DNA from: Escherichia phage ZCEC5
Length of the DNA stretch: 43,372 nt
Sequence record: NC_073321.1
Reading direction: 5' to 3' (one strand)
Made by a program: the position numbers and the translations under genes. Under the pieces are notes generated by a model. That model had not been told where the DNA came from, did not search any database, and saw only the letters and a program-made list of their open reading frames with translations. How positions within the stretch are numbered: position 1 is the first letter of the stretch; each line of letters opens with the position of its first letter. Below are positions 26,429-39,077 of this stretch, one piece after another.

Positions 26429-26613
26429 TCGAACTCCACCAAACCGTCGTTAAAGAACTCAGCGATTATGTAGCCCGAGTCATCGTCGTAATCGGCGACT
26501 ATCTCACCAGCGTCTTCTAAAATTACGCGATACTCAATGCCGTTATAATAAGCCTGATATTCTTCACCTTCTTCGAACTCGGGTACGTTCGAACTAACGC
26601 AAAACAGTTTCAT
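26425..26613 (-). CDS. Hypothetical acidic protein (62 aa)
   Basis: ORF track; ATGA-coupled to SNF2 helicase. Confidence 0.45.
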   Translation of the reverse strand: MKLFCVSSNVPEFEEGEEYQAYYNGIEYRVILEDAGEIVADYDDDSGYIIAEFFNDGLVEFE

Positions 26614-28034
26614 TTCTTACCTCGTCTCTTCATGTAATTGAGCAATTCTTCCTGTACCGATTTCTTCTCGTCTGTACGCGCGGCAACAACCTCGTCCAGC
26701 GTGTCTTTAGCAACAATGTGATAGAGGAACACTGGGCGCTCATGCCCCGCCTGTTTCTGGCGGACCGGGCCTATACGCTCAACAACCTGCAAATAGTGCT
26801 CAAGGTTCCATCCTTGCGAGATGAACGCCAGATGATGTCCGCCGTCCTGTAAATTCAAACCATGCCCGGCTGACGCAGGGTGCACGCATAAGATTTCGAT
26901 TTCGCCACGGTTCCACGCTTCCATCTGCTTATTACCCTTAGCACCTTTTGCAAACGCCTGTGCCTGCGGGAATCGCTTAAGGATACGCTCCAGTTCGTGC
27001 TTGAACTGATAAGCCACCAGCAACGGCGCTCCCTGTAACTCCTCGACAATGGACTCCAGCGCATCCAGTTTCGTATCGTGCACTTTCTCCCAGTCTTTCG
27101 TTGCTTCGCCATCAGGCCCCGACACATACACGGCACCGGAGGCAATCTGCAAACACTTTGACGTCTTCGCCGCGGCGTTAGCAGCTTCAACTTCTCCGCT
27201 CTCCAGTTCTGCGAATAGCTTCTCCTCCATATCTATGTACGCCTGGCGCGCTTTCTTCGGCAGGTCGATCTCAACCGGTACAATAATCGGCGCTTCGCAA
27301 CCGAACCACTCGGCAGCGTCAATCGTGAGACTAATGTCCTTCATCTTCTGGTGAATCTCGTTATCTGCTCCCGGGCGCGCATGATACTCACGGGCCATCG
27401 CCGACTTACCTTTCTGTACCGAGTTAAACCATCGGTCGGTGAATGCTGTGTATGAGGACCCCAGGCGCTCGCCCGCGTCGATAAACCAGTTCTGCCCCCA
27501 CAAATCCTTGAGGCCGTTTGGCGATGGCGTACCAGTAAGGTTTATCAACCTCTTAACATTTCTGAATGCTACTTTACTAAGCGCCTTAGCCCGCTTGCTC
27601 CCCCCGGAACGGCTACGGAATGATTTCAATTTCGTGCTTTCATCATTAACTATCACGGTAAAAGGCCAGTCGTCTACGCCGTAATAGTCGATAAGCCACT
27701 CTATTACCTCGTAGTTGATGCAAATCACATTGGCGTCTGACTCCAGCGCAGCTATGCGGCGCTTCTCTGAACCGGTGGCATCTACGACACTCAGGCATGG
27801 GAAATTCCACTTAGTTTGTTCTGCGGGCCACGTACCGGACGCAACACGTAAAGGAGCCAGAATTAACACGCGGTCGTCATCATTAAGTTGCCCATTACGG
27901 AACAGCCGGTTTAACGCCCACAAGACGCTGCCTGTTTTTCCTGCGCCCATGCTCGCCCAAATATTACAGCGCGGATGTTGCAACATGAACGAAGTCATGA
28001 GCTTCTGGTACTCGCGCCTTTGAAACTTACTCAT
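26610..28034 (-). CDS. SNF2-family (DExx-box) helicase
   Basis: Walker A SMGAGKTG near N-terminus, DESTK motif II, C-terminal helicase domain. Confidence 0.75.
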   Translation of the reverse strand: MSKFQRREYQKLMTSFMLQHPRCNIWASMGAGKTGSVLWALNRLFRNGQLNDDDRVLILAPLRVASGTWPAEQTKWNFPCLSVVDATGSEKRRIAALESDANVICINYEVIEWLIDYYGVDDWPFTVIVNDESTKLKSFRSRSGGSKRAKALSKVAFRNVKRLINLTGTPSPNGLKDLWGQNWFIDAGERLGSSYTAFTDRWFNSVQKGKSAMAREYHARPGADNEIHQKMKDISLTIDAAEWFGCEAPIIVPVEIDLPKKARQAYIDMEEKLFAELESGEVEAANAAAKTSKCLQIASGAVYVSGPDGEATKDWEKVHDTKLDALESIVEELQGAPLLVAYQFKHELERILKRFPQAQAFAKGAKGNKQMEAWNRGEIEILCVHPASAGHGLNLQDGGHHLAFISQGWNLEHYLQVVERIGPVRQKQAGHERPVFLYHIVAKDTLDEVVAARTDEKKSVQEELLNYMKRRGKK

Positions 28035-28062
28035 TTACCACCCCCATGAATGCCTTTATAAA

Positions 28063-28950
28063 TTAAGCGGCTACTTGCGGGACGATGGCATTGCCATAAC
28101 CGCGCAATCGTCCCACTCTGGCGGGTATCCCATTAGCCAGCGGGAATGTGCCGGGTTCAACTGGCCGGAATTTTCCATCCCGGCAGCCGAGCCAGTCAGC
28201 ATCTGACCAGAAGCCGTTATGCGTATTGGCTCCACGAGGTAGCATTGATTGTGAAGATTGTTCGGGTCTCTTTTTGTTTCCGCCTCGCTGTAACTTCCGT
28301 GACGCGAATTCTGAACCGTCGGTGTCCCCCATGCCGCTTTCAGCCCCTGTTCCGTTGAGTAGTCCAGTCTGTCGAATGTTCTGTCCTTCCCATCCTTGCG
28401 AATCACTGTCTCCCCGCTCCCTTTGTAATCGTTCGCTGTCGGTGTCGGCCAATTCGTGCGCACCAAAGAAGAGTCGTTCTCTTTTGTGCGGAGCGCCGAC
28501 GCTACAAGCTGGGAGTACGGCAAACCCGACGGCGTAGTCTTCTCCTTCCAGGTGAGCTTGTAAATCGCACATCCACGATTTTGCAATTGCTGGTGCAACC
28601 TGTTCCCCAAAGAGGACTGGAGGGCGGCACTCGCTGATGAGGTCGAGGAAAACTGGCGCAAGGTGTCTCGGGTCGAACTGTCCGAGTTGTTTTCCTGCCG
28701 CGCTAAACGGTTGGCAAGGCGGGCTTCCCGTCCAGAGAGGCGTATCTTCCGAAACTCCCGCAAGTCTGAGCGCGAGAGGCCAGCCGCCGATACCAGCGAA
28801 AAAATGACACTGGGTGAACCCGTCGAGGTCTTCTGGCTTAACTTCGGTAATGCTTCTTTCATCTACAACTCCAAAAGGTATGTGGCCCTGTTTTATTAAT
28901 TCACGCAGCCACGCGGCTGCGCCTTTATCCCATTCGTTGTAATAGTTCAT
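28063..28950 (-). CDS. DNA (cytosine-5)-methyltransferase, orphan
   Basis: Motif I FAGIGG, motif IV SPPCQPFS, ENV-like GEQV, HKRER, C-terminal GNAIVPQVA; no adjacent restriction enzyme. Confidence 0.8.
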   Translation of the reverse strand: MNYYNEWDKGAAAWLRELIKQGHIPFGVVDERSITEVKPEDLDGFTQCHFFAGIGGWPLALRLAGVSEDTPLWTGSPPCQPFSAAGKQLGQFDPRHLAPVFLDLISECRPPVLFGEQVAPAIAKSWMCDLQAHLEGEDYAVGFAVLPACSVGAPHKRERLFFGAHELADTDSERLQRERGDSDSQGWEGQNIRQTGLLNGTGAESGMGDTDGSEFASRKLQRGGNKKRPEQSSQSMLPRGANTHNGFWSDADWLGCRDGKFRPVEPGTFPLANGIPARVGRLRGYGNAIVPQVAA

Positions 28951-29138
28951 TTCGCCACCAGAACTAACTCTTTACGCCCGAACGCCGTAACGTTACCCGT
29001 TACATCTTCGATAACCAGTTTACCGTTCGACTCGACGAACACTGTATCAACGGCAACAGGACGACGGGTCTTAACGTTGAAAATCATATCGCCTGGTACG
29101 ATGTCACGTGCTGGTTTGCGGTCATATTCGTGTTTCAT
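28947..29138 (-). CDS. Hypothetical protein (63 aa)
   Basis: First gene downstream of class A promoter 29171-29199. Confidence 0.5.
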   Translation of the reverse strand: MKHEYDRKPARDIVPGDMIFNVKTRRPVAVDTVFVESNGKLVIEDVTGNVTAFGRKELVLVAK

Positions 29139-29149
29139 TTCTCAATTCC

Positions 29150-29455
29150 TTATATTGTTGGTGTATGACTACTATAATAGTTCGCTATTAGGTCGTCAAC
29201 CTGTTTAAACGAACCAACGACAAAAACATTCGCGCCGCGTTTACGCATACGCTCGTGCTCACGTAACTGGTGCGGGTCTGGCTTCGTGTTTTCGTCTTTC
29301 TTAACCTCGACGAACCAGACGATGCCGCCGGGGAGAATTACCAGCAGGTCAGGAGCGCCCACTCTATTTTCGTACGACAATTTGCGTACAAGGCCCCCCA
29401 TGGCCTCAAATCGCTCTTTTGCGTATTTCTGAACAACTCCTTCTTTAGTTGCCAT
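29150..29455 (-). CDS. VRR-NUC domain nuclease
   Basis: GAPDLLV...VEVKK...Q...G..VFVV signature of the VRR-NUC PD-(D/E)xK fold; ATG 29455 chosen to avoid overlap with HNH gene. Confidence 0.7.
   Translation of the reverse strand: MATKEGVVQKYAKERFEAMGGLVRKLSYENRVGAPDLLVILPGGIVWFVEVKKDENTKPDPHQLREHERMRKRGANVFVVGSFKQVDDLIANYYSSHTPTI
29171..29199 (-). promoter_or_regulatory. Class A promoter TTGACG-17-TATAGT with palindrome AATAGCGAACTATT in spacer
   Basis: Same architecture as promoters at 33083-33111 and 35913-35941. Confidence 0.5.
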
Positions 29456-29477
29456 GGTTATGGAAATCTCCGTGTAG

Positions 29478-29936
29478 CTATTCTCTCGCCGCGCAGACCA
29501 CTTTGTACGCTTCCTCCTTTGTCGAAAAAGCACCGAGATATATGCGCTTCCCGTTCACGGTTATCCTTGCCCTAAATTTACCTCTTTCAGGCGATACCCC
29601 CTTTAAACATGAGGTGTTGTCGCGCCTTACCCTTGCGTTTCTGGTATTCTCCCACCTGGTCGCTAACCGCAGGTTGCAAATCCGATTATCCGCACGGTCG
29701 CCGTTTATATGGTCAACCTCCTCCGGCGGCATATCACCGTACACCCACCACCAAGCCAATCGGTGTGCCGGATAGTGGACGTTTCTGAACACAACTTTCA
29801 TATATCCAAGGTCAGTGTAGTTATTTATAACTTTCCCCGGAACAGACCGCGGGCCACTTCGCTTAACCCATTTGAATACCCCAGTATCAGGGTCGTACGA
29901 CAGAAAATCTTTTATATCGCCACTTGGTGCTTTCAT
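29478..29936 (-). CDS. HNH homing endonuclease with AP2-like DNA-binding domain
   Basis: DHINGDRADNRICNLR HNH motif; C-terminal AP2-like segment; N-terminal YDPDTGVFKW shared with two paralogs. Confidence 0.7.
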   Translation of the reverse strand: MKAPSGDIKDFLSYDPDTGVFKWVKRSGPRSVPGKVINNYTDLGYMKVVFRNVHYPAHRLAWWWVYGDMPPEEVDHINGDRADNRICNLRLATRWENTRNARVRRDNTSCLKGVSPERGKFRARITVNGKRIYLGAFSTKEEAYKVVCAARE

Positions 29937-30018
29937 AATACACACCCCTCACGTTTCGTGTGTTCAATCCCGCAGCGCGGACAGATTCGACAATCTTCTT
30001 CATAAAACCAGTAAATTT

Positions 30019-30150
30019 TCATTCCATCACCCACAGATAAATTGCGATGAACATACCAAATACGGCAACCATCATGCCGTATTGTCCCTCGTGACAGTAG
30101 ACACCGGCGGCGAATCCCGCCAGTAACGCGATAATCAGTTTACTTAGCAT
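30019..30150 (-). CDS. Hypothetical hydrophobic peptide (43 aa)
   Basis: Start overlaps polymerase 3' end; single long hydrophobic stretch. Confidence 0.3.
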   Translation of the reverse strand: MLSKLIIALLAGFAAGVYCHEGQYGMMVAVFGMFIAIYLWVME

Positions 30151-32338
30151 AGCGCTTCATCTCCGCACCTTCTGCTACAAGAGGGAACCCCTCGGCCCAC
30201 TCCGGCAATGCGCACATTAATTTTTCCAGTTCAGCCACCGTGTAGTCAGGCGTATCTGGAGTTTCACATACCAGTTCATCGTGTACCGAAAGTACGATGG
30301 GATACCCGCCACCCTCAACATTAATCATTGCATATGCGAGTAAATCACGGCACAGCGCCTGAACAATGTTTTCGCAGGCTTTGCCGCCGTGGGTGTACAG
30401 GGTAGTCCATTGGCGGGTTAACTGGTTTTCACCCTGATACTTGATTCGCACATTCGTGTTTACTCGTCCGTCTTCGTCTGTTTCCTTTGTCACACTAACG
30501 CCGATTCCCGGATACGAAAGGATACGACCTGACGGCAACTCCATACACAACCACCAACCCGGAACCTTCCTACCGGATGAATCAAATTCTACTGTTCTCC
30601 AGATTCGGATAGCGCGCTCACCATTCTTGCGCAGATGCGCCCCCGCCCAAAATTCACGACCAGGATTACGAACAGCGGCTAAAATTCCGTCTTTAAGGTC
30701 GCGCCAGAACGCTACTGTTTCCGGGTGTGACTCGCGCCACATACGCTTGATTGCGTCACATGTGCGCCACACTTTCTTGTCCAGAATATACGATGGTCTG
30801 TCGTCCTTTTCACCTGGATGCGGTGGGCGCTTGGCTTCCTGGATACGAGCCCACTCATAACCCCGTGCGGTAGCGGCCCATATGTGGTCGGGGAATGTAC
30901 CGTCCATTGTTTTTGCCATCTCAATAAGGTCAAGACCTAAGTTTTTAGCGAACGTAACGAACGCCCCGACGCCTCCCTCATAACCGAGGCCCAGTTCGCA
31001 TGCTTTGCCTATCTGTCTGATTTCCTTAAAGTTTTTCTTAATATCATCAGGGTCCATGCCGAACATCTTACCCGCGGTTACGCAGTAAATATCCAACCCG
31101 GCACGGAACGTATCGAGCGCGGTTTCTTCACCAGCCAGCCACGCAAGCCCCCGGCCTTCAACGTTAGAGTAATCGGCAACAACAAACTTATGTCCGGCTT
31201 CCGGTATTATGCAGCTACGGACCGTCGATGCCGTCAGCTTGGCTACATCAAAACGGCGATGCGCGCGGCCTTTAAGTAACGCAGAAATTCCTTTATCCAG
31301 TTCGTCATCGTGATAGTACCCGCGCGCCAGGTTCTGCGGCTGGAAGCCTTTACCCGCCCATCGCAGAGTACGTTTTGCCCCGCCGTACTGCAAGCAACCG
31401 CGGCGGCGGTCGTCAGAAGAGCGACCTAATAGCAGCGGGTTATATTTCGTGGACGCGGTGGACGCAGCCCCGAGGCGCATCTCAACAATATCCCTTGCGT
31501 CTTCTGGTAAATCCTCGTCCGACAGCAGGTCGAACAACGTCGCCTTTTGCGCGTTATGTATGCGGTGGGCGGGGGCGAGTTCCTGCAATGCGGGCAGGAA
31601 GTCTTTTCCAGTTAATGAGCAACCGAATTTACGTTGCGACTCCTCCTGCAACCCCTCCTTATGCCGTGTTATGGCTTCGATGGCGGCTTCTGCCAGTGCG
31701 ACGTCAACCTTAAACCCGCGGTCGTTGATTAACTGGTCAAGTACCAGTACACGGTCTTCGAACTCCGAGTTTCCCCACCGCGGCATTTTTTGGAACACTT
31801 CGCGCATAGAAGTGATATCGCTAATCGCATACTTTATGAAAAGCGCCCACTCTTCTGGGTGTGTTTCTGACGTATATCGGCGTATTTTGTAGTTCTTCGG
31901 GGTTGGCTTAGTGAATCTTTTAATTAATGCTTTGCCACGTTTGTCCTTGGCGTTCTCCGCGGATACTTCTAGAACTTCACACAAAACAGCCAATTTCCCC
32001 GGCAGCGCGTGGCGGAAAGCGCAGGTCATTGTGTCAATAACACTGTCTACAGGTATATCGTAACCCCAGCAGTTACGGATAACCAAGCGGTCGAACATAT
32101 TGAAGTTATGGCCCACAATTTTAATATCACCCCGCATTGCTTTACGTAGGCCAACTTTCAGGTCCCGCGGCATGTCGCTGCCGTCTGTGCAGTCCCAACA
32201 CCGAACATCACCATCGTCGAATGCGTAGGTGCATATAAGAATTTCTGTCGATGGGTGTTCGGCGTAGGCGTAACTACCGACAACCGTTATGTCTAAATCA
32301 CAAAAAGTTTCAGTATCTAGGTAAAGTAATTCGCTCAT
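30140..32338 (-). CDS. DNA polymerase, family A, with 3'-5' exonuclease domain
   Basis: Exo motif YLDTETF; motif A DYSNVEGR, motif B KxxxLGxGYG, motif C VHDE. Confidence 0.9.
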   Translation of the reverse strand: MSELLYLDTETFCDLDITVVGSYAYAEHPSTEILICTYAFDDGDVRCWDCTDGSDMPRDLKVGLRKAMRGDIKIVGHNFNMFDRLVIRNCWGYDIPVDSVIDTMTCAFRHALPGKLAVLCEVLEVSAENAKDKRGKALIKRFTKPTPKNYKIRRYTSETHPEEWALFIKYAISDITSMREVFQKMPRWGNSEFEDRVLVLDQLINDRGFKVDVALAEAAIEAITRHKEGLQEESQRKFGCSLTGKDFLPALQELAPAHRIHNAQKATLFDLLSDEDLPEDARDIVEMRLGAASTASTKYNPLLLGRSSDDRRRGCLQYGGAKRTLRWAGKGFQPQNLARGYYHDDELDKGISALLKGRAHRRFDVAKLTASTVRSCIIPEAGHKFVVADYSNVEGRGLAWLAGEETALDTFRAGLDIYCVTAGKMFGMDPDDIKKNFKEIRQIGKACELGLGYEGGVGAFVTFAKNLGLDLIEMAKTMDGTFPDHIWAATARGYEWARIQEAKRPPHPGEKDDRPSYILDKKVWRTCDAIKRMWRESHPETVAFWRDLKDGILAAVRNPGREFWAGAHLRKNGERAIRIWRTVEFDSSGRKVPGWWLCMELPSGRILSYPGIGVSVTKETDEDGRVNTNVRIKYQGENQLTRQWTTLYTHGGKACENIVQALCRDLLAYAMINVEGGGYPIVLSVHDELVCETPDTPDYTVAELEKLMCALPEWAEGFPLVAEGAEMKRYAK

Positions 32339-32350
32339 TATTTTTGACCC

Positions 32351-32378
32351 TTAGTAAAAAGGCCCAATGAAGGGCCTT
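32351..32378 (-). terminator. Intrinsic terminator between DUF2815 gene and polymerase (possibly partial)
   Basis: AAGGCCC-loop-GGGCCTT followed by T4 on the minus strand. Confidence 0.45.
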
Positions 32379-32397
32379 AGTTAAATTGATTCAGATA

Positions 32398-33024
32398 TTA
32401 ACGGCGGCGACGTTCGCGGCGTGGTGCTTCGTCTTCTTCGTTGTCTTCAAGGTCATCGACGCTCGCAGCAACTTTAGAACCCCCGAACGCTTTACCTTCA
32501 CCAACGTATTTAATCGCCAGCAGGTTAACACCGAGGACTTTATATTTCTGGCTAAACCAGATTTCGACGCTTACGTTAGCTACGCAGCCGCTGTAAACCT
32601 GTTCGCCTTCGATCTGTTCACCGTCTACATTGAAGTCCTGTTCTACCTGAGTCTCACCTTTTTTAGAGGTTACAATCAGTGGCTGTTTCTGCGCTTTCGC
32701 TTTGAAGTAGAAGCCTTCCGGGAAGTCTTCAAACGGATTGTCGCGCTCGGCAATGTCTTTAATCGCGCATTTATCCATGTGCTTACCTTCGCCGTAGTTG
32801 GACTTCATCCACTTCTCGGCGGCGGCTGCGCCTAACGCTTCTTCAATTACAGCGTAAACGGTGTCATAGAGCGCATCGATTTGAGCATGGTCAGACGGCA
32901 GGATAATAGTAGCGCTGTACTGACCTTTAGTGATTGAGCCATCGTCGTTTTCACGGTCTTTTTCGCGTTCGAATACGTTAACCCAGGCAGTGTTTACTTT
33001 ACGCAGATTTAATTTCAGTCCCAT
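32398..33024 (-). CDS. DUF2815-like protein (putative phage ssDNA-binding protein)
   Basis: Highly acidic/basic C-terminal tail, position between DUF2800 nuclease and polymerase as in PolA-type phage replication modules. Confidence 0.55.
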   Translation of the reverse strand: MGLKLNLRKVNTAWVNVFEREKDRENDDGSITKGQYSATIILPSDHAQIDALYDTVYAVIEEALGAAAAEKWMKSNYGEGKHMDKCAIKDIAERDNPFEDFPEGFYFKAKAQKQPLIVTSKKGETQVEQDFNVDGEQIEGEQVYSGCVANVSVEIWFSQKYKVLGVNLLAIKYVGEGKAFGGSKVAASVDDLEDNEEDEAPRRERRRR

Positions 33025-33082
33025 TTGATTTCTCGCTTTTCAGTTTCAGTTTACTCCGGGATCTGCCCGGCCAGTGATTAGA

Positions 33083-33111
33083 ACTATAATAGCTAACTAT
33101 TCATGTGTCAA
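33083..33111 (-). promoter_or_regulatory. Class A promoter TTGACA-17-TATAGT with palindrome AATAGTTAGCTATT
   Basis: Consensus -35, 17-bp spacer carrying the palindrome. Confidence 0.55.
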
Positions 33112-33300
33112 ATAAAATTTTGCAATAGGGATTATGTTCTCGAAATTAAGCATATTGGCCGGTTCGAACTCATCCTCTACAGGGTCGTATCGCATCATGG
33201 TACCGTTCAAGAACGTGAACGATTCCGAGTGTAGATACCCATCCCAGCGCCATACCATCAAAAAATCTTTATCAGTCGGCATTTCATTTACTTGAATCAT
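33097..33300 (-). CDS. Hypothetical protein (67 aa)
   Basis: ATG 33300 overlaps DUF2800 stop (ATGA) and is preceded by GAGGAGGA. Confidence 0.45.
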   Translation of the reverse strand: MIQVNEMPTDKDFLMVWRWDGYLHSESFTFLNGTMMRYDPVEDEFEPANMLNFENIIPIAKFYLTHE

Positions 33301-34538
33301 TCTAAATCCTCCTCTGTAACTTGATTCCACTCAGGACGTGTGTCATCCGCCGTTGCGACGCATGGCGCACCGGGCTTACGGGTAATGAAGTCTTTCAGTT
33401 CTTCTTCCGGTACAATTTTAACCGCTTCGGTCGGTGTCATAAGAACTACCTTTTGCAGCATAGTACCGTACTTCTCGAATACTGCGTCGGTATCTTTCCA
33501 CGCACGATTACCGGGGCGACCTTCAACCAGTTTGTATCCTGGCACTTTCTTACCTGAATGCAAAGCAGCAGCCATCGCTTTCTCAACCTTGTCGATGTGC
33601 TGGCGCAACAACGGCAGCTTCTCATACTCAGCGACGAGTTGCTCTGGCGTAAGTTCCAGCGCACAGTCGTCCTCAAGTTCTTCCGCCAGTACCGCGTTAA
33701 CGGTTTTTGTACGAGCTGCGCACTGTTCCGAGAAACGACACCACTGACAACCATCTACCGACGGCTTGAAGTCCGACGCTTTAAGGTTCTTCTTGCCGCG
33801 GTTATAGGCATCAAGTGCTAACAGTGCACGTTTCTGTGCGAACTTAGCGAACAGTTCCAGACCTTCAACCGAGATGTCCCACTCCGACGCGCCACCAGCG
33901 TACGGCTGAAAGATGACCAGACGAACGGTTGTTATGTTATAACGTCTCTTGAGTCGGCGATAAACACCGAGAGCGTAAAGCATAAGCTGCTTGTTTTCTT
34001 TCGCTTCGACACGATGTCGTCCTGTTTTCAGGTCGCCAATAATGAGCATGTACTCGTCGGTGTTAGCCAGTTCCTGAACGGCAACAAGGTCGGCGGTTCC
34101 GAAGGTTTCAACGCCTTCGTAACCTGGGTGCAATACCTCAGTAAGGTTAACGCGCATCTCGAGCTTGGCGTAAGTAGCTACATCGATAATCGGTTTGCAG
34201 TAGTCTGTGTACTTGCGCACCTGCTCAATCATATCCGCCGTAATCAGTACCGCGCCTTTCATCGGGCTGATTAGCGCCTTAATCTGACCTTTACCCTCAT
34301 CCAGCACGTAAGCGCCGACTTCACGCTCTAACGGCAACGCAGTGCCTTTTATATACTGGTTTAGATGGACCTCAGCTATAGTGTGACATGCGGTTCCTGT
34401 AACTGCGGATTTACCAGACGTGTTAGGAATATCTTTTTCACAGGCCAGTGATGCAGCGCATGACAGCCACTTTTTAGCCCCGGACGGCGACAGTAAAGCG
34501 TGTACGTCGTTATTGCCACCGCGTTCTTTTAGAATCAT
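33297..34538 (-). CDS. DUF2800-like PD-(D/E)xK nuclease with C-terminal Cys cluster (Cas4/RecB-like)
   Basis: N-terminal LLSPSGAKKWLSC, catalytic-type GDLKTG, C-terminal CQWCRFSEQC. Confidence 0.7.
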   Translation of the reverse strand: MILKERGGNNDVHALLSPSGAKKWLSCAASLACEKDIPNTSGKSAVTGTACHTIAEVHLNQYIKGTALPLEREVGAYVLDEGKGQIKALISPMKGAVLITADMIEQVRKYTDYCKPIIDVATYAKLEMRVNLTEVLHPGYEGVETFGTADLVAVQELANTDEYMLIIGDLKTGRHRVEAKENKQLMLYALGVYRRLKRRYNITTVRLVIFQPYAGGASEWDISVEGLELFAKFAQKRALLALDAYNRGKKNLKASDFKPSVDGCQWCRFSEQCAARTKTVNAVLAEELEDDCALELTPEQLVAEYEKLPLLRQHIDKVEKAMAAALHSGKKVPGYKLVEGRPGNRAWKDTDAVFEKYGTMLQKVVLMTPTEAVKIVPEEELKDFITRKPGAPCVATADDTRPEWNQVTEEDLE

Positions 34539-35032
34539 TTCTCGTCTCCGTTAACTGTAAAGCCGTATTTAATTTCGGCTTGCCTACGAGCCTTAGCTGC
34601 GTTCTCTAATTTATCGTAAGCCCCTAAATAAATCGGCGTACCGTCTACATAAATTCTTGCAACCCACTTACCGCAGCGTTTATGAAACCCAACACCTTTA
34701 ACCCCTGAAGTATTGTCAGCCCGTACGCTGGTGCCGTGTGCGATGCTACCTCGACGCATTTTTATAAGATTTTCTATCCTGTTATCAGTTCTATCTTTAT
34801 TTTCGTGACGAATTACTTCCCCCGGCGCTATCGGCCCGTTAAACATCTCCCAAACAACGTGGTGGATAAGTTTAGTAGCACCGTTAAAACGCAGTATTTT
34901 AAATTCACTCCCATCGTTATCCACCCTCGTACTGCCGGCTTCCTGTCCTATTTTTACAGATTTTGACGGGCTTATTTTCCAAAACAATTTACCTGTATCA
35001 CGGTCGTAGTCAAAAACTTCACGCCAATTCAT
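34535..35032 (-). CDS. HNH-AP2 homing endonuclease paralog (degenerate HNH motif)
   Basis: N-terminal FDYDRDTGKLFWK; HNH region reads IRHENKDRTDNRIENL; C-terminal AP2-like YLGAYDKLENAAKARR; ATG 35032 overlaps upstream stop. Confidence 0.6.
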   Translation of the reverse strand: MNWREVFDYDRDTGKLFWKISPSKSVKIGQEAGSTRVDNDGSEFKILRFNGATKLIHHVVWEMFNGPIAPGEVIRHENKDRTDNRIENLIKMRRGSIAHGTSVRADNTSGVKGVGFHKRCGKWVARIYVDGTPIYLGAYDKLENAAKARRQAEIKYGFTVNGDEK

Positions 35033-35301
35033 GCCAAAGTCTCCCACTGGTCAATTAAATGTCGTGTCTGGTGATGGCAATGCATGGCCCACCCGTACAT
35101 CGACTCGAAGACATAAAAGTCAGGTTTGGCGAAAGTCGTGCGCTTAATCTGCGACACGTGACGGCCTATATCTTTAGGCCGTGGTACTTTGCCTAAGTAC
35201 GCCATCTCTTCCATCTGGTGCGCACCGGACGGCGCACGCAACAGCCACAACGCCTCTGTGTTATCCCGCCTGTCAACGGCGCGGTAGAGTTGGTAAACCA
35301 T
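35029..35301 (-). CDS. Hypothetical protein (90 aa)
   Basis: RBS GAGGG; His-rich segment HCHHQTRH. Confidence 0.45.
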   Translation of the reverse strand: MVYQLYRAVDRRDNTEALWLLRAPSGAHQMEEMAYLGKVPRPKDIGRHVSQIKRTTFAKPDFYVFESMYGWAMHCHHQTRHLIDQWETLA

Positions 35302-35344
35302 AATTCCGACCCTCAGTTAAAGCGGCCCTAAGGCCGCGAGATAG

Positions 35345-35881
35345 TTATTCTTCTTCGAAATACTTGTTCTTGATTGCCGTCAGGCGTTCCAGGTATTTGG
35401 CCAGGTCTTCGTCTTTAATCGCGGCAATCTTCATTTTCTTACCGGTGAACTCTTCCAGCAGTTCATCGGAGTCATCGCACGCGGCATCGCTCGGACCTTC
35501 GTTAATCGCATCGTCGATAGCCTGAATCTGATCGCGAAGAGACTTATAATCAACCTCTTCTTTCTCTTCTTCCGGCTCTGGCGTAGGTTCCTCTACTTTA
35601 GCTTTACGCGGCTTGCGTTTCGGCTTCTCTTCTTCTGTCGGTTTAGTGTCAACGACGTCTTCACCTTCGACCGGGATTTCTTTCTCTATCGCCTTTCTCA
35701 CCGCGAGTCCCGCTTGAAATTCGTCCTCCATGATGTCATCAAGTTCTTTTGTTGCTTCTTTTGCAACAGTAGTCTCGATTGTTGCGGTTTCAGAAACGAC
35801 AACCTGTTTTGCACTATTCGCGGCAATCAGTTCATGTGCAACTACGAAACGTTCCAGTAATTTTAAGAATTGGTCTAACAT
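35345..35881 (-). CDS. Highly acidic early protein (178 aa)
   Basis: First gene after class A promoter 35913-35941; very rich in E/D; RBS GAGGAG. Confidence 0.6.
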   Translation of the reverse strand: MLDQFLKLLERFVVAHELIAANSAKQVVVSETATIETTVAKEATKELDDIMEDEFQAGLAVRKAIEKEIPVEGEDVVDTKPTEEEKPKRKPRKAKVEEPTPEPEEEKEEVDYKSLRDQIQAIDDAINEGPSDAACDDSDELLEEFTGKKMKIAAIKDEDLAKYLERLTAIKNKYFEEE

Positions 35882-35912
35882 TTGTTTCTCTCCTCTCGTT
35901 TGGTATGGGCTA

Positions 35913-35941
35913 ACTATAATAGCGAACTATTCACGTGTCAA
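35913..35941 (-). promoter_or_regulatory. Class A promoter TTGACA-17-TATAGT with palindrome AATAGCGAACTATT
   Basis: Divergent from the Cro-like gene promoter. Confidence 0.55.
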
Positions 35942-35945
35942 TGGG

Positions 35946-35975
35946 CTTTTCTGAAATAATTAATATGGTACTATT
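35946..35975 (+). promoter_or_regulatory. Candidate promoter/operator for the Cro-like gene
   Basis: -10 TACTAT at 35969-35974 inside imperfect palindrome AATATGGTACTATT; weak -35. Confidence 0.35.
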
Positions 35976-36005
35976 CACATATCAACTGACTAAGGAGTAA
36001 TTGAC

Positions 36006-36221
36006 ATGCAACCATCTGAACTAGGCATCCGTGTAGAACAACGCCGTAAAGAACTCGGCATCTCCCAGCGCCGTCTGGCTGTCCTGACCGGAGTTTCCCA
36101 GGGCGCGATTAACCAGCTTGCGCTCGGAGTAACTCAGGACGTCCGCCCGGCGACGCTGTTTAAACTGGCGGAAGTGCTTGAAGTAGACGCCAAGTGGCTG
36201 GCGTTAGGTGAAGGGGCTTAA
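36006..36221 (+). CDS. HTH XRE-family (Cro/C1-type) transcriptional regulator
   Basis: 71 aa; LGISQRRLAVLTGVSQGAINQL helix-turn-helix; strong RBS AAGGAG. Confidence 0.75.
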   Translation: MQPSELGIRVEQRRKELGISQRRLAVLTGVSQGAINQLALGVTQDVRPATLFKLAEVLEVDAKWLALGEGA

Positions 36222-36237
36222 CGCCCCTTTCTTTTTA
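36211..36237 (+). terminator. Intrinsic terminator of the Cro-like gene
   Basis: AAGGGGC-TTAAC-GCCCCTT followed by TCTTTTT; overlaps the stop codon. Confidence 0.55.
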
Positions 36238-36238
36238 C

Positions 36239-38479
36239 CTACTCCAAATCCTCCTCTGTCACCACCAGCATTTCATTTGGTTCGTATATTGTCTTCGGTC
36301 TTAATCTGTCGCCCATCTTTTCCGGTATCCGGTATGTGCCTGGTATAACTTCACCGTTAACATCGCACCCAAGCATCAACTCCCCGTCTTTCAGCATCTT
36401 CTCAAGATGGTGGTTGGTGATGGCGTGGTCGCCCGAGTTCGCCACTATCTGCCGTTGGGTAAAACCTCGTCCGGTGTCGTCAGACTGTTGCAGGTCTTCC
36501 AGCGCGGCGAGTATTGATTCCTTACGCCCTTCATCCTTCCCACGTTTTACAGCATTCTTTACGTTTTCTTTACCTTCCTTTGTCAGCCCTTCTTCCCGCT
36601 CTTTCTCTTCGTCGGTCTTGAACGGCTCGAATCCCCACGGCATCAGCACAAGTGCCTTATGCGGCTCAGGAAGGTCCAGGTTTACGATTGTGCCGTACTC
36701 CTCTGTGCTACCCAGGAACTCAACCGCACGGTACTCTTTCGGCGGCGGGGCTTCACGGAACTGTACAGACTCGAGCACCATGCCAACCGTTTTCTGCTGA
36801 GGCCCGTGCTTAAATTTAGAGTGGTATACGTTTATTTGACGGTCGGTTGCACGTTCAATCGTCAGTTCCACGTCGACACCCGCATACAAGGCCCCGCTAC
36901 CACGGGCTTTCTTGCCACCCTTCGGCGTATGGTGGACAACACCTACTGCGGCTTTAGTTGCATCACGTACTTCTTTCAGGATGGCGATAACTTTACCCAT
37001 ACCGATTGCCGTTGATGAACTGTTCTCGTCGAACTTATCAATCGTCAGGGCCAGCGTCTGGTTAAGGGTGTCAAACGCGACCATGCCAATAGGTTCATCC
37101 CCTGCGGTTTCGCGCATTAGCTTAATCAGGCTTTTCAGTTTGCCGACGTCGCCCATATCGATTACATGTACATAATCTTTACCTTCCTCACCGTATTTAG
37201 CCGCGAGTGCATCGATACGTGTGCGTGTGGCCGCACCACCTTCACCGTCGATATAGAAGTGATGGCAACGCTGGGTGTCAGCCCCCGCAAACCGGTATCC
37301 TGCGGCGCTCAGGTACATCATCCCCAGCGTATAGAATGATTTGTACGTACCAGATTCACCGACAATATCCCAGATGCAGTCTGACGGCATGTAACCTTCA
37401 ACGACGAAATCAGCCTTTACCGGTTCTGGTAACTCGTCCTCCTCTGAGTCCTCGTCGTCTTCCAGGTCGTCGAGGCTGCATGAAACGGATTCACGTGCAC
37501 CCCAGCCGATTGCCTCAGCGACTTCACTGAACGGTAGCCCGGTCGCATCACACGCATACTTCCACACCTCCTTCGGCGACATGCCTTCGGTCGCCGTAAT
37601 GTCGGTGTCGTGAATCATGGTTACGTTAGGGGCTTCGTACCCCTCGCGTGGGAAGCACAGCAGGAAGTCGTCCGGGCGCGGGGTAGGGTCGCTGTAGTTT
37701 TCTGCGTGTTCTGGTGTAGCTGGCATCTTAAGGCCACGCGGCGTCATGATACCGCCGTACTCGAAAGCCAGTGCCTCGAACGCATCAGTAAACGCGGTGC
37801 GCAGTTCTTCTGGTATCTGGTAATCAGATGCGCTGCTCACCTCGTAATCCGGGATGTCTTCTAGCAGTTCCTCCGGGTCAATCAGGTCGTTGCGTCGTGA
37901 CCAGATAACCTGAGAGCCAACAGGCGGCAGATACATCGGCTGCGACAGAGTGAACCCGCTGCGGTCCGCACCCATGCCTTTGAAGAAGTGCTCAAGCAAG
38001 CCATGACGAACACGGATGATGTCACCGCCTTCAACCGGACGGCCCAGCGGCATAACGACGCGAAAGCGTGGGGACTCATCGGTATGTGACGCCGTGGTGT
38101 AAAGGCACATAGCCCTGCGGCTGCGCTTAACCAGGCGCACCGCTTCCTGATACTCTTCCGGCGTCGCACTGTCGAAGTCCAGATACGCCAGCGACGATTT
38201 GCTTACAGACGCATCGCAGCGGTAGAAGAAGCCTTTACGTGCTTGCTTAAAGTCTCCCGTTTCTGGGTCTTTTACGGTGCTGCGCGTAGCGTCACACGCG
38301 GCAGTGATATAGCCAGGCGCGGTCTTCGGGTTAATTCCGTCACGAACAACATCGAGCGGCTGGATTAAATCTTTCAGGTCGTCCAGTGTTGCCGTGTGTG
38401 TGGTTCTGACGTTTATATCCTTTTTCTCTGCCCGCGCGTTGCGACGGGACCACGAGTAGGATAAAATTACATCGGACAT
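36239..38479 (-). CDS. DNA primase / helicase (N-terminal primase-like domain fused to RecA-like ATPase)
   Basis: Walker A GESGTYKS and Walker B MVAFDTL in C-terminal half; 746 aa; replication-module context. Confidence 0.65.
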   Translation of the reverse strand: MSDVILSYSWSRRNARAEKKDINVRTTHTATLDDLKDLIQPLDVVRDGINPKTAPGYITAACDATRSTVKDPETGDFKQARKGFFYRCDASVSKSSLAYLDFDSATPEEYQEAVRLVKRSRRAMCLYTTASHTDESPRFRVVMPLGRPVEGGDIIRVRHGLLEHFFKGMGADRSGFTLSQPMYLPPVGSQVIWSRRNDLIDPEELLEDIPDYEVSSASDYQIPEELRTAFTDAFEALAFEYGGIMTPRGLKMPATPEHAENYSDPTPRPDDFLLCFPREGYEAPNVTMIHDTDITATEGMSPKEVWKYACDATGLPFSEVAEAIGWGARESVSCSLDDLEDDEDSEEDELPEPVKADFVVEGYMPSDCIWDIVGESGTYKSFYTLGMMYLSAAGYRFAGADTQRCHHFYIDGEGGAATRTRIDALAAKYGEEGKDYVHVIDMGDVGKLKSLIKLMRETAGDEPIGMVAFDTLNQTLALTIDKFDENSSSTAIGMGKVIAILKEVRDATKAAVGVVHHTPKGGKKARGSGALYAGVDVELTIERATDRQINVYHSKFKHGPQQKTVGMVLESVQFREAPPPKEYRAVEFLGSTEEYGTIVNLDLPEPHKALVLMPWGFEPFKTDEEKEREEGLTKEGKENVKNAVKRGKDEGRKESILAALEDLQQSDDTGRGFTQRQIVANSGDHAITNHHLEKMLKDGELMLGCDVNGEVIPGTYRIPEKMGDRLRPKTIYEPNEMLVVTEEDLE

Positions 38480-38537
38480 GTTGTATTTCCTTCAGCAAGT
38501 AATTTAGCCTCGGCGTTCACCGCGTCGGGGCTTTCTT

Positions 38538-38771
38538 TTATTCCAGGTCTTCTAAAGTAGCGGTCATTCCGCGAACTTCAGCAACAGCACTATATTTCCC
38601 GCCAACATTTTTCACGACACCAGATTTAACCAGCACTTTCAACGACCCTTCAATAATGGCTGAACTATAGTACTTAAAATAACTACGGCGCAAGTCGATA
38701 ACGCTGCACGACCCTTTTTTACGTGTTAACGAAACTACCGCCGTAAATACGCGTGACTGGAACTCGGTCAT
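38538..38771 (-). CDS. Hypothetical protein (77 aa) with C-terminal TLEDLE tail
   Basis: ATGA-coupled; C-terminus resembles those of the primase and DUF2800 proteins. Confidence 0.45.
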   Translation of the reverse strand: MTEFQSRVFTAVVSLTRKKGSCSVIDLRRSYFKYYSSAIIEGSLKVLVKSGVVKNVGGKYSAVAEVRGMTATLEDLE

Positions 38772-38938
38772 TTAACGTTCTCCTTAATCCACGCTTCCAC
38801 TTTCTCCGGGTCAAACGTACCAGGCTGCCGGCGGCCCATAATGCGGATACAACAATCTGGGAACTTCCCGCTCTTTAACCAGTTATTCAGTGTGCGACGA
38901 GTAACCCCGATACGCTCGGCTACCTCATTCTGCGTCAT
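38768..38938 (-). CDS. Small HTH DNA-binding protein (AlpA/excisionase-like)
   Basis: MTQNEVAERIGVTRRTLNNWLKSGKFP; ATG 38938 with RBS AAGGAG (ORF-track frame 38768..39016). Confidence 0.5.
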   Translation of the reverse strand: MTQNEVAERIGVTRRTLNNWLKSGKFPDCCIRIMGRRQPGTFDPEKVEAWIKENVK

Positions 38939-39077
38939 CTTTAATCTCCTTAATTGTTTCCCATGCGAACGCTGTAGCTGTGCCGTATTTATTAGGGCAG
39001 TATCTGCTCTCGCCATGTCCGTTAAACCACGCTTCTATCAGCAACTCTTTCAACTGTTCTTCTGTCAAAGTAACCAT
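38925..39077 (-). CDS. Hypothetical small protein (50 aa), first gene of leftward early operon
   Basis: ATG 39077 with RBS GAGGG; the ORF-track TTG start at 39110 overlaps the -10 hexamer. Confidence 0.4.
   Translation of the reverse strand: MVTLTEEQLKELLIEAWFNGHGESRYCPNKYGTATAFAWETIKEIKDDAE

Follow-up and report, generated by a model that had tools for sequence, protein, structure and literature searches.

The DUF2800 nuclease, the primase-helicase and a 77-aa winged-helix protein (p77) of the Kagunavirus ZCEC5 carry the C-termini TEEDLE, TEEDLE and TLEDLE, respectively, and comparison with related phages suggests that this shared tail of the DUF2800-DUF2815-PolA module is a variant on the known T7-type docking tails. 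The analysis covered the whole 43,372-nucleotide stretch of NC_073321.1 (the window), in which all three tail-bearing genes are located on the minus strand:

33297..34538, minus strand: DUF2800 / PD-(D/E)XK nuclease gene, 413 aa (PF10926, E=1.5e-67; PDDEXK_1, E=2.4e-8; PHROG 69, exonuclease)
33300..33317, minus strand: nuclease tail codons T-E-E-D-L-E (ACA GAG GAG GAT TTA GAA), also the GAGGAGGA Shine-Dalgarno (SD) for the next gene
36239..38479, minus strand: primase-helicase gene, 746 aa (AAA_25, E=1.7e-17; PHROG 3228, replicative helicase-primase, E=3.6e-301)
36242..36259, minus strand: helicase tail codons T-E-E-D-L-E (ACA GAG GAG GAT TTG GAG); C-terminus ...LVVTEEDLE, stop TAG
38538..38771, minus strand: p77, winged-helix protein, 77 aa (AF2 model; PHROG 5169)
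38541..38558, minus strand: p77 tail codons T-L-E-D-L-E (ACT TTA GAA GAC CTG GAA); C-terminus ...TATLEDLE, stop TAA, no SD-like run

The original prediction had placed the same acidic tail on three replication proteins and had stated that two of the tails embed GAGGAGGA and that the third uses other codons; both claims were borne out when translations and codons were read directly (the tail peptide is written as NEMLVVTEEDLE). The nuclease scores 228.8 bits against the DUF2800 (PF10926) profile (gathering cutoff 21) over residues 13-402, and its tail falls outside the domain because the Pfam model stops at residue 402. The shared tail is not due to chance, the estimate being about 1e-5. Based on the amino-acid frequencies of the whole window, a terminal EDLE on a given protein has p = 2e-5, and in a simulation any terminal 4-mer was common to at least three of the 41 proteins in ~1e-5 of trials. 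[DE]DLE occurs five times in ~10.7 k residues, when 0.4 occurrences are expected and none of 5000 shuffles reached five. All five lie in four replication proteins, namely at the three C-termini, in the interdomain linker of the helicase (SLDDLEDDEDSEEDE) and in the tail of the protein that binds single-stranded DNA (SSB; SVDDLEDNEEDEAPRRERRRR):

37433..37477, minus strand: acidic interdomain linker S-L-D-D-L-E-D-D-E-D-S-E-E-D-E, internal motif copy in the helicase (pLDDT <50)
32398..33024, minus strand: gp2.5-like SSB (DUF2815 / Enc34_ssDNA-bd; PF10991, E=5.7e-16, 59.1 bits vs gathering cutoff 26)
32401..32463, minus strand: SSB C-terminal segment S-V-D-D-L-E-D-N-E-E-D-E-A-P-R-R-E-R-R-R-R, with motif, acidic run and Arg-rich end

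Considering the SD within the tail codons, the tail could be a by-product of translational coupling, with an SD (GAGGAGGA) located 7 nt before an overlapping ATGA start forcing the residues E-E-D. The ZCEC5 nuclease gene is coupled in exactly this manner: the protein ends ...NQVTEEDLE, its stop codon TGA and the start ATG of the following gene overlap as ATGA, and a purine-rich SD (GAGGAGGATTTAGAATGA) is found 5-10 nt before this stop-overlapping start.

33097..33300, minus strand: 67-aa gene whose translation is coupled to that of the nuclease gene through the ATGA stop/start overlap (from the sequence; PHROG 6314)

The phage collection contains 1,440 records that match the ZCEC5 nuclease. 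Among 39 related loci, the SD-type codons GAG-GAG-GAT coincided with a downstream gene overlapping by ATGA in 20 of 20 cases, which, together with the coupling of the helicase gene to a downstream gene at 14 of 42 loci, is what a by-product of coupling would look like. At the remaining 19 loci, however, the non-SD codons GAA-GAA-GAT always went with the lack of a coupled gene and the peptide was unchanged, tails such as SEEDLE and EDDLEA being kept. Two further observations fit a constraint imposed by coupling: the Jerseyvirus helicases end in an altered peptide, TEGDLE, and retain the SD-like GAAGGGGA/GAAGGAGA, and the HTH gene upstream of p77 (38768-39016) conserves a C-terminus, ..IKENVK, that embeds AAGGAG for p77. 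Against this, no SD precedes a stop-overlapping start at the ZCEC5 helicase gene or at p77, the latter being separated from the helicase ATG by a 58 nt gap without overlap. No gene is coupled to the ZCEC5 helicase, because a terminator, and no downstream start, is located 3' of its stop:

36207..36236, no strand assigned: putative hairpin terminator directly 3' of the helicase stop (AAGGGGC-GTTAA-GCCCCTT, read directly from the sequence)

This hairpin is common to the helicase gene and a convergent HTH gene (36006-36221). In close relatives, 27 uncoupled helicase genes keep SD-like codons, and therefore DNA-level constraint or recent descent contributes there. Outgroup helicases end in YDDLE, EEDLEN or DDDLKD, all without SD codons; both an SD and a coupled gene are lacking at the helicase tails of Tsm2, SE1 and Teewinot, and in Tsm2, SE1 and Dhillonvirus the nuclease as well as the helicase has a near-terminal [DE]-D-L, again without SD. 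Nor can an SD account for the invariant L-E, for the motif in the helicase linker and the SSB tail, or for the DEV- and DDF-type tails that are common within other genomes. We regard an origin of the tail in coupling as extremely improbable and, judging from these comparisons, as largely refuted. RBS constraint alone, named at the outset as the explanation that could overturn the prediction, does not account for a peptide that persists without SD. The known arrangement of an embedded SD with an ATGA overlap is exactly that of the ZCEC5 nuclease and 67-aa genes, and of the helicase genes in the 14 related loci, and it accounts for the codon choice but not for the peptide. The GAGGAGGA codons would thus form a second layer, overlaid on the peptide where an ATGA overlap couples a downstream gene.

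The shared ends might also be copies at the DNA level, produced by a junction cassette (ACAGAGGAGGATTTRGAATGA) that sits at mosaic boundaries, where small accessory genes are exchanged, and that reached two genes by recombination or gene conversion, the peptide itself having no role. The ends of the nuclease and helicase genes do share 14 identical bases, but there is no identity beyond the motif codons, and p77 encodes the same peptide with different codons. The region is visibly mosaic in these phages, with at least four different small genes occupying the nuclease 3' junction in relatives and at least three the helicase junction in Kagunavirus (more in Jerseyvirus), all of which start at the same ATGA; yet the non-SD variant of the nuclease keeps EEDLE despite 4-5 base differences, and the tail pairs of Dhillonvirus, Tsm2 and SE1 share the amino-acid motif and not the DNA. 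D, L and E never vary in the 30 nuclease, 42 helicase and 25 p77 genes compared, where the changes are synonymous (TTA/TTG, CTG/CTT, GAA/GAG), a pattern that holds across Kaguna- and Jerseyviruses, and the present counts suggest an excess of synonymous over non-synonymous change. The DUF2800 tail is moreover family-wide, down to ~35% identity. Spread of a DNA cassette is therefore very unlikely in our estimation, and the codon comparisons indicate that the motif is kept by selection on the protein and not by the RBS alone.

The expectation that the tail is conserved at the protein level was confirmed by the synonymous variation, the nuclease tails without SD and the outgroups, and the tail was present in close as well as distant homologs. 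Since the listed database matches were mostly close relatives, the distant sample consisted of a 50%-cluster search and individual phage genomes. EEDLE forms the C-terminal end in 115 of 120 helicase homologs among the matches listed, and D-L makes up two of the three invariant columns in the helicase C-terminal alignment. For the nuclease, DL lies within the last five residues in 13 of the 13 closest full-length DUF2800 cluster representatives (42-59% identity), and in 117 of 146 DUF2800 representatives the 10 C-terminal residues have a net charge of at most -2, compared with 34 for internal control segments. Four DUF2800 proteins without an acidic end, examined for a neighbouring SSB, comprised one from a non-phage context with no adjoining SSB, one with a normal-tailed SSB, one with an internal EDDF and one on a cut contig. 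The position of the motif varies (TEEDL, TEDDLEA, TEDDLEALTS, DEDLSNE and EEDLEN ends), and therefore a free terminal carboxylate cannot be essential, unlike in the C-terminal peptide of bacterial SSB (SSB-Ct) and in T7.

Within the DUF2800-DUF2815(SSB)-PolA module, the nuclease bears a lineage-specific copy of the acidic tail of its own SSB, and the primase/helicase often does so too. SSB and nuclease tails match in Chi, 611R5, phi2958PVL, RapA and Ppu-503: Chi and PIN2 have a D-[DE]-V end on nuclease, SSB, primase, chi44 and RdgC; nuclease and SSB read NDFDDVS..ADLI and DDFDDIS..EALI in 611R5, AEDDFDKL and AEDDFDEL in phi2958PVL, and VDDFEDLTQ and VDDFEDLSD in RapA; Ppu-503 has an LI end on four proteins. 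In Dhillonvirus, the nuclease ends ATDEDLSNE and the helicase ATDDDLKD. Tails from the same genome were more alike than permuted pairs (P=0.002 for nuclease-SSB, P=0.0008 for nuclease-primase), although these P values are rough because of the low complexity of acidic tails and the non-independence of the 13 genomes compared. The analogy to SSB tails drawn in the original prediction fits these data, the same lineage-specific tail being present on the SSB itself in related replication modules.

This matching within genomes bears on the question of whether the tails recruit or evade a host factor, either the host SSB interactome or a protease or adaptor that reads C-termini, and not a phage protein. 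The bacterial SSB-Ct has the sequence D-F-D-D-D-I-P-F, which the remoter tails DDFDDI, DFDDL and IDFDDLF resemble, but TEEDLE is without the I-P-F tip that defines it. Known C-terminal degrons (ssrA-type LAA) are non-polar, and a reading of the tail as a degron was ruled out on sequence. A dependence of phage annealing proteins on the tails of host SSB is known (PMC6393309, PMC13490951). The tail type nevertheless varies among four enterobacterial phage lineages (DLE, DEV, DDFDDV..LI), and this speaks against a constant host partner; E. coli and Salmonella phages differ clearly in tail type and each is matched within its own genome. A host target is thus improbable, and the partner of the tail is probably phage-encoded, as judged from these alignments. 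As a separate candidate we considered the beta-clamp-binding motif, the consensus of which is Q-L-[SD]-L-F or Q-L-x-L-x-L near a terminus; neither TEEDLE nor TLEDLE contains Gln or paired hydrophobic positions, and this reading was discarded on sequence as well.

With respect to structure, the tails have the properties of a short linear motif: D-L is invariant after linkers of differing length and sequence, the tails have low pLDDT, and they are attached to three unrelated folds. The core of the motif would be an acidic residue followed by D-L and usually E, no more than three residues from the C-terminus and at the end of a flexible segment. The helicase C-terminus (..EPNEMLVVTEEDLE) is acidic and predicted to be flexible, with pLDDT <50 for residues 722-746 of the structure model, and follows a C-terminal winged-helix-like domain (~650-720, pLDDT 74-85); the full-helicase model has a mean pLDDT of 51 and was relied on for the C-terminal domain and the disorder pattern only. 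D338 and L339 of the helicase linker do not vary among divergent homologs, even where the N-terminal primase domain is a different one, and the C-terminal region of a Dhillonvirus homolog is reported to be disordered. The AF2 model of p77 (pLDDT 87) consists of three helices and a beta-hairpin wing, and residues 67-77 have pLDDT 58-69. Jerseyvirus orthologs of p77 end ATPEDLE, and a 91-aa analog in the same slot (35% identical) ends ISRDLE after a longer linker. The p77 tail was found in Kaguna- and Jerseyviruses only, and many Kagunaviruses have unrelated small tail-less proteins in place of p77. A fold search with p77 returned generic winged-helix matches only (LexA, MotA, RPA32C), none with E <1e-3. 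We also tried p77 as a paralog of the winged-helix-plus-tail part of the helicase C-terminus, but the profile-profile probability of 2.7% was not significant and the architecture alone is similar.

Since all carriers (nuclease, helicase, winged helix and SSB) bind DNA and the tails are acidic and predicted to be flexible, each tail might instead be an autoinhibitory DNA mimic that folds onto the DNA-binding surface of its own protein, as in T7 gp2.5, T4 gp32 and E. coli SSB, with no common partner involved. Removal of the Enc34 SSB tail alters DNA specificity (PMC5686142), consistent with such a role. However, self-mimicry would not lead one to expect the same six residues on three unrelated folds or their joint change in sequence from lineage to lineage, and the invariant hydrophobic anchor inside the acidic run points to a defined pocket. 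We therefore hold this explanation to be rather unlikely. The reading that we favour, and consider somewhat more probable than all alternatives taken together, is that the tail would be a disordered peptide by which its carriers dock on one phage partner, be it the OB groove of the SSB or the polymerase, as in T7 gp2.5/gp4.

Like ZCEC5, T7 has a family A polymerase, a gp2.5-type SSB and an acidic, flexible, hydrophobic-anchored tail on the helicase. The T7 SSB carries a look-alike tail (..EEADEDGDF and ..DWSNDTDF for gp2.5 and gp4), whereas the ZCEC5 SSB has DDLED and an acidic run but ends in PRRERRRR. The anchor is D-L-E in ZCEC5, and tails of this type are not strictly terminal; in T7 it is a terminal aromatic Phe (D-F), which work from the Richardson laboratory is reported to have found essential. 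In addition, ZCEC5 has tails on the nuclease, whereas the T7 gp6 exonuclease is without an acidic tail, and on a small winged-helix protein; the Guernseyvirinae SSB motif is internal and followed by an Arg-rich end. Both kinds of T7 tail dock on gp5 polymerase/thioredoxin, those of gp4 at basic patches of gp5 (PMC12593628), and the gp2.5 tail also fits the DNA groove of the SSB itself (PMC5686142). The ZCEC5 SSB belongs, like Enc34 ORF6, to the DUF2815 family, whose members have a long acidic disordered C-terminus that the nuclease tail copies in relatives. Crystals of Enc34 ORF6, of two further DUF2815 proteins and of T7 gp2.5 show this acidic end entering the OB-sheet groove of a neighbour (PMC5686142). 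In the literature searched, where the T7 papers of subscription journals are thinly covered, we found no description of tail copies on a DUF2800 nuclease or a primase/helicase.

Bacterial SSB-Ct is a docking peptide for many genome-maintenance enzymes (PMC3159472). Like the ZCEC5 tails, it forms the end of a disordered linker and combines an acidic run with hydrophobic residues. TEEDLE is not itself an SSB-Ct, which is defined by D-D-D-I-P-F, a free C-terminal Phe carboxylate and an OB-fold SSB; it is without I-P-F, a free C-terminus seems dispensable, and it sits on a nuclease, a helicase and a winged-helix protein. Whereas one tag carrier meets many partner pockets in bacteria, ZCEC5 has many different tag carriers, which implies one or few receptors. 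A functional parallel is provided by lambda, in which the resection nuclease Exo is physically coupled to the ssDNA-annealing protein Red-beta, which coats the ssDNA made by Exo and is thought to be loaded directly (PMC6393309). We propose the same functional logic for the tail of the nuclease and the gp2.5-like SSB/annealing protein, but lambda uses a folded Red-beta C-terminal domain bound to Exo and no short acidic nuclease tail, and the families are unrelated.

Two proteins of the module are candidate receptors. The SSB aligns, in a weak match, to PDB 4jg2 with VDDLED over ADDFTT. In Guernseyvirinae the SSB motif is not terminal, as 14 residues with an Arg-rich end (PRRERRRR in ZCEC5) follow DDLED, and the SSB of Caulobacter phage RapA has the same layout (DDFEDL...EDEAPR..RR). 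In the ZCEC5 SSB the tail may have its ancestral form, and this SSB is also a candidate receptor for the tails. The second candidate is the polymerase:

30140..32338, minus strand: family A DNA polymerase, candidate hub (PF00476, E=8.6e-18)

Its relation to other family A enzymes is distant, no close structure has been solved, and it bears no acidic tail, its C-terminus being ...RYAK in ZCEC5 and similarly non-acidic in every outgroup examined. From the co-variation and the T7 and DUF2815 precedents, we infer docking on one partner. The tail may accordingly be the Guernseyvirinae/Dhillonvirus version of the acidic, hydrophobic-anchored tail of gp2.5-like SSBs in the DUF2800-DUF2815-PolA replication/recombination module. 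With a copy of this SSB-type tail each, the nuclease, the primase-helicase and, in Kaguna- and Jerseyviruses, p77 would all be able to bind one phage-encoded receptor. The likeliest site is the basic groove in which the SSB binds ssDNA, a basic patch of the family A polymerase, or both. This would link the enzymes that produce or use ssDNA to the SSB or polymerase and make hand-over of ssDNA possible. The nuclease of the related phage Bas14 is dispensable for plaque formation and truncation escapers exist; any function of the tail is therefore non-essential in the laboratory.

A more far-reaching and tentative idea, which we think is more probably wrong than right, is that the tail is a lineage-specific address tag throughout this module, which more than a thousand sequenced phages contain: every enzyme producing or handling ssDNA would have received a copy of the SSB tail, with tag and receptor (the SSB groove and/or the polymerase) co-evolving. 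The carriers would be the resection nuclease and the primase/helicase, and in some lineages an SNF2 helicase, RdgC and small regulators like p77. If true, the replisome and recombination machinery of each lineage would be privately wired and insulated from co-infecting relatives and the host SSB interactome, and the winged-helix protein p77, with its tag, would compete for that site or recruit to it.

For annotation, these data illustrate that conserved C-terminal codons can overlay a peptide motif and an SD, and that comparing coupled with uncoupled relatives separates the two. A docking code would be of practical value because the nuclease is a known trigger of the retron type IX defence and gp2.5-like proteins are of interest for recombineering. 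The combination of DUF2800, gp2.5-like SSB and PolA is among the commonest phage replication/recombination cassettes, and a lineage-specific tail offers a cheap experimental handle on its assembly. Docking by this tail would mean that the idea developed for T7 gp2.5/gp4 also covers a nuclease of resection and a winged-helix protein of small size, and a shared tail could explain why such modules move between phages as blocks.

Kagunavirus (Guernseyvirinae) Escherichia phages match the window at ~90% DNA identity, GertrudWoker_Bas73 being the best match, and the minus-strand genes at 26610-39016 are a standard replication/recombination module.

Genes of the replication/recombination module
26610-28034, minus strand, SNF2 helicase
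28063-28950, minus strand, C5 DNA methylase
30140-32338, minus strand, family A DNA polymerase
32398-33024, minus strand, gp2.5-like single-strand-DNA-binding protein (SSB), DUF2815/Enc34 family
33297-34538, minus strand, DUF2800 PD-(D/E)XK nuclease
34535-35047, minus strand, HNH/AP2 endonuclease
35345-35881, minus strand, 178-aa acidic protein
36239-38479, minus strand, primase-helicase
38538-38771, minus strand, p77 (77-aa winged-helix protein)
38768-39016, minus strand, HTH protein (excisionase-like)

Read from the window's gene ends and codons, the original prediction that three replication proteins share an acidic tail is correct as written, as is its statement that two of these tails embed a Shine-Dalgarno (SD) sequence (nuclease and helicase, GAG GAG GAT) and the third uses other codons (p77, TTA GAA GAC). 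The nuclease ends ..NQVTEEDLE (ACA GAG GAG GAT TTA GAA TGA), and its stop codon shares ATGA with the start of a 67-aa gene, which makes GAGGAGGA a well-placed SD. The primase-helicase ends ..LVVTEEDLE (ACA GAG GAG GAT TTG GAG TAG); no gene is coupled to its end in the window, and the hairpin terminator 3' of it is common to the convergent HTH gene 36006-36221. p77 ends ..TATLEDLE (ACT TTA GAA GAC CTG GAA TAA) with no SD-like run, 58 nt from the helicase start. This spacer (38480-38537) holds an imperfect GC-rich inverted repeat, AGCCCCGACG..CGCCGAGGCT, which is kept in relatives and could fold as RNA or partly terminate transcription before the helicase gene.

The probability that a given protein ends EDLE is ~2e-5, and any terminal 4-mer was common to three of 41 proteins in ~1e-5 of simulated trials. 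The proteome contains five copies of [DE]DLE where 0.4 would be expected (0/5000 shuffles gave five), and all of them lie in four replication proteins: at the three C-termini, in the helicase interdomain linker SLDDLEDDEDSEEDE and in the SSB tail SVDDLEDNEEDEAPRRERRRR.

Such endings might be explained wholly by ribosome-binding-site constraint. C-termini shaped by an embedded SD exist in this genome, because the HTH gene preceding p77 (38768-38790, minus strand) ends ..WIKENVK, with IKENVK encoded as ATT AAG GAG AAC GTT AAA TGA, and so carries an AAGGAG SD and the ATGA overlap for p77; this internal control is likely a case of SD-driven conservation. The HTH C-terminal peptide is kept even where the rest of the protein differs from one version to another. 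To compare the three tails, gene ends were taken from 41 related viral contigs and Bas73. The nuclease version ACA-GAG-GAG-GAT-TTR-GAA-TGA overlapped a downstream ATG in 20/20 cases, the following position being filled by at least four different small genes. The versions AGT-GAA-GAA-GAT-TTR-GAA-TAA and, in Jerseyvirus, GAA-GAC-GAT-TTA-GAA-GCT had no coupled gene (19/19) and were followed by a promoter-like TTGACA..TATTAT. Since the peptide [TS]-E-[ED]-D-L-E is the same in coupled and uncoupled versions, codon choice goes with coupling and the amino acids are independent of it; with all 19 uncoupled genes keeping the peptide in other codons, ribosome binding does not wholly explain the nuclease tail. 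For the helicase this holds in part. Its outgroup tails lack an SD, but within the subfamily there may be a DNA-level contribution, judging from codon usage: GAATGA couples 14/42 genes to a following one (at least three different genes in Kagunavirus loci, with others in Jerseyvirus loci), and the other 28 end at a terminator, with SD-like codons still present in 27 of them. None of the p77 tails contains an SD. By per-codon counts the D, L and E of the tail are invariant, with synonymous variation (TTA/TTG, CTG/CTT, GAA/GAG), while helicase position -4 varies between E, D, G and R. Selection on the motif thus acts at the protein level.

The tail is also present in close homologs: among the matches listed, EEDLE ends 115/120 helicases (TEGDLE in Jerseyvirus) and DLE ends 119/120 nucleases. 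EDLE closes 27/30 full-length p77 homologs, Jerseyvirus orthologs ending ATPEDLE. The p77 slot may instead hold a 91-aa analog of 35% identity, in which a longer linker leads to the end ISRDLE, or, in other Kagunaviruses, unrelated proteins that lack the tail. Three genomes outside these genera have the motif on both nuclease and helicase, without SD codons or coupled genes.

Nuclease and helicase C-termini outside the two genera
Serratia phage Tsm2: nuclease ..SDVDLA; helicase ..TYDDLE
Salmonella phage SE1: nuclease ..TDNDLAN; helicase ..EEEDLEN
Dhillonvirus Teewinot: nuclease ..ATDEDLSNE; helicase ..ATDDDLKD

When six helicase C-terminal regions were aligned, the only invariant columns were a single winged-helix Leu and the tail D-L, with a linker that varies in length between them. 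In the DUF2800 family as a whole, sampled by cluster representatives, DL lies within the final five residues of all 13 closest full-length members (42-59% identity), and 117/146 carry a net charge of -2 or below in the last ten, compared with 34 when internal segments served as controls; more distant members typically have ..DDF[ED]DL.. or ..DLI/DLL ends. The Pfam DUF2800 model extends only to residue 402 and leaves out the nuclease tail.

The ATGA junctions after the nuclease (33297-33300) and helicase (36239-36241) are mosaic boundaries (loci L006-L030 on related contigs), where unrelated small genes start at the exact overlapping ATG (at least four and, in Kagunavirus loci alone, at least three, respectively). 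The slot just upstream of the helicase (38538-38771; L005, L010, L011, L013, L035) is a replacement hotspot, occupied by p77 or alternatively by its distant 91-aa analog, by an unrelated 96-aa protein (..CLANR) or by one of 149 aa (..VPNAE). A domain swap concerns the N-terminal half of the primase-helicase and its acidic linker (37433-38479): in some Kagunaviruses (proteins P0044 and P0098; L036-L040) a completely different N-terminal primase domain is joined, at the invariant acidic linker SLDDLEDDEDSEEDELPEP, to a helicase half whose matched stretch is ~90% identical in the closest loci and ~72% identical in L038-L040. On the L008 contig the nuclease match stops at residue 359 and the frame runs into unrelated sequence ..ADAIEVSHGVCF, which may reflect a frameshift, insertion or assembly error. 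Two free-standing HNH_3 + AP2 genes of homing-endonuclease type lie within the module (34535-35047 and 29478-29945, minus strand); the former overlaps the nuclease gene start and is replaced by small hypothetical genes in Bas73. The highly acidic 178-aa protein (PHROG 3127, annotated '13.88 kDa late protein') ends ..NKYFEEE in 41/42 copies (window and all 41 loci carrying it), the bodies of these copies being only 65-95% identical, and KYYEEE in Tsm2, KYYEIEE in SE1 and TYFELED in Dhillonvirus, which gives the module a second kind of conserved acidic C-terminus. In L058 (Logan contig SRR18067449_36944) the C-terminus of the DUF2800 protein is basic and its gene adjoins radical-SAM and HSP20 genes rather than SSB and polymerase, which suggests that DUF2800 is not confined to the phage replication module.

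Where this module occurs in remoter phages, the tail of the nuclease is a copy of that on the phage's own SSB, and often of those on other replication proteins, while the motif varies from lineage to lineage.

Tails shared within single genomes
Chi: primase ..PFDDEDEV; chi44 ..EEDDV; nuclease ..AWDDEDDDDEV; SSB ..DWEDEV; RdgC ..DEDDDEV; SNF2 ..VWDDEE
PIN2 (Klebsiella): pattern as in Chi
611R5: nuclease ..NDFDDVSDDTLTADLI; SSB ..DDFDDISEGADAEALI
APSE-8: nuclease ..NDFDDVTE..; SSB ..EEFDDLSM..
phi2958PVL (Staphylococcus): nuclease ..AEDDFDKL; SSB ..AEDDFDELDTDDEDFL
RapA (Caulobacter): nuclease ..VVDDFEDLTQQ..; SSB ..VDDFEDLSDQ..
Ppu-503 (Pseudomonas): LI at the end of nuclease, SSB, SNF2 and ORF15

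Xanthomonas AhaSv and Streptococcus Javan630 show a weaker resemblance. Same-genome tails were closer than permuted pairs (P=0.002 for nuclease-SSB, P=0.0008 for nuclease-primase; rough values, as the genomes are not independent). Because VDDLED of the window SSB aligns with ADDFTT of a solved DUF2815 protein, and the window SSB has its motif, acidic run and A-P-R..R-R in the same order as the RapA SSB, [DE]-D-L-E looks like the local variant of the [DE]-D-F-[DE] motif that the family carries, its hydrophobic anchor being Leu. The window SSB tail (32401-32463, minus strand) is bipartite, an acidic run preceding an Arg-rich end, PRRERRRR; Tsm2, Dhillonvirus and RapA SSBs share this layout, which is unusual for SSBs, whose normal end is acidic. 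The family A polymerase lacked the tail in every genome examined.

Structure prediction places the p77 and helicase tails in less confident regions. The p77 model (pLDDT 87) is a three-helix winged-helix domain, with generic winged-helix matches only in fold search, and its tail residues 67-77 fall to pLDDT 58-69. The helicase model is poor overall, with a confident C-terminal helix-helix-helix-hairpin domain at ~650-720 and pLDDT below 50 for residues 722-746 and the acidic linker 327-378. A preprint describes the Dhillonvirus homolog Bas14_0045 as an active PD-(D/E)XK nuclease whose C-terminal region is predicted to be disordered; this nuclease is dispensable enough that truncation escapers arise.

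T7 gp4 acidic tails dock on polymerase basic patches (PMC12593628), and the gp2.5 tail binds polymerase and helicase and is required for stimulation of gp6 exonuclease (PMC4124056). Crystal structures of Enc34 ORF6, of two further DUF2815 proteins and of T7 gp2.5 show the acidic C-terminus occupying the OB-sheet groove of an adjacent molecule (PMC5686142). By analogy, the tail is most economically read as a peptide that would dock on a single receptor encoded by the phage, either the SSB groove or the polymerase or both; we infer a phage rather than a host partner because phages of the same hosts have different tail types. Nuclease, helicase and p77, carrying SSB-type tags, would then be held at SSB or polymerase. 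In a plausible refinement, an ssDNA-producing enzyme would use its own tail to hold free SSB until the emerging ssDNA competes with that tail for the SSB groove, and SSB would thereby be loaded.

Among known systems, the T7 gp2.5/gp4 tail pair (..DGDF, ..DTDF) comes closest. It is anchored by a terminal Phe, where the tails here have the Leu of D-L-E. Other differences are that the position of the tail here is not strict, that a resection nuclease and a small winged-helix protein are among its carriers, and that the Guernseyvirinae SSB copy of the motif is internal. Membership of the bacterial SSB-Ct family was rejected for the tail. The searchable literature, which covers the relevant papers incompletely, yielded no account of such shared tails in the DUF2800-DUF2815-PolA module. 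The docking-tail concept is established; its extension to this module is new and reaches a very widespread, uncharacterised module, in a form that is general and directly testable.
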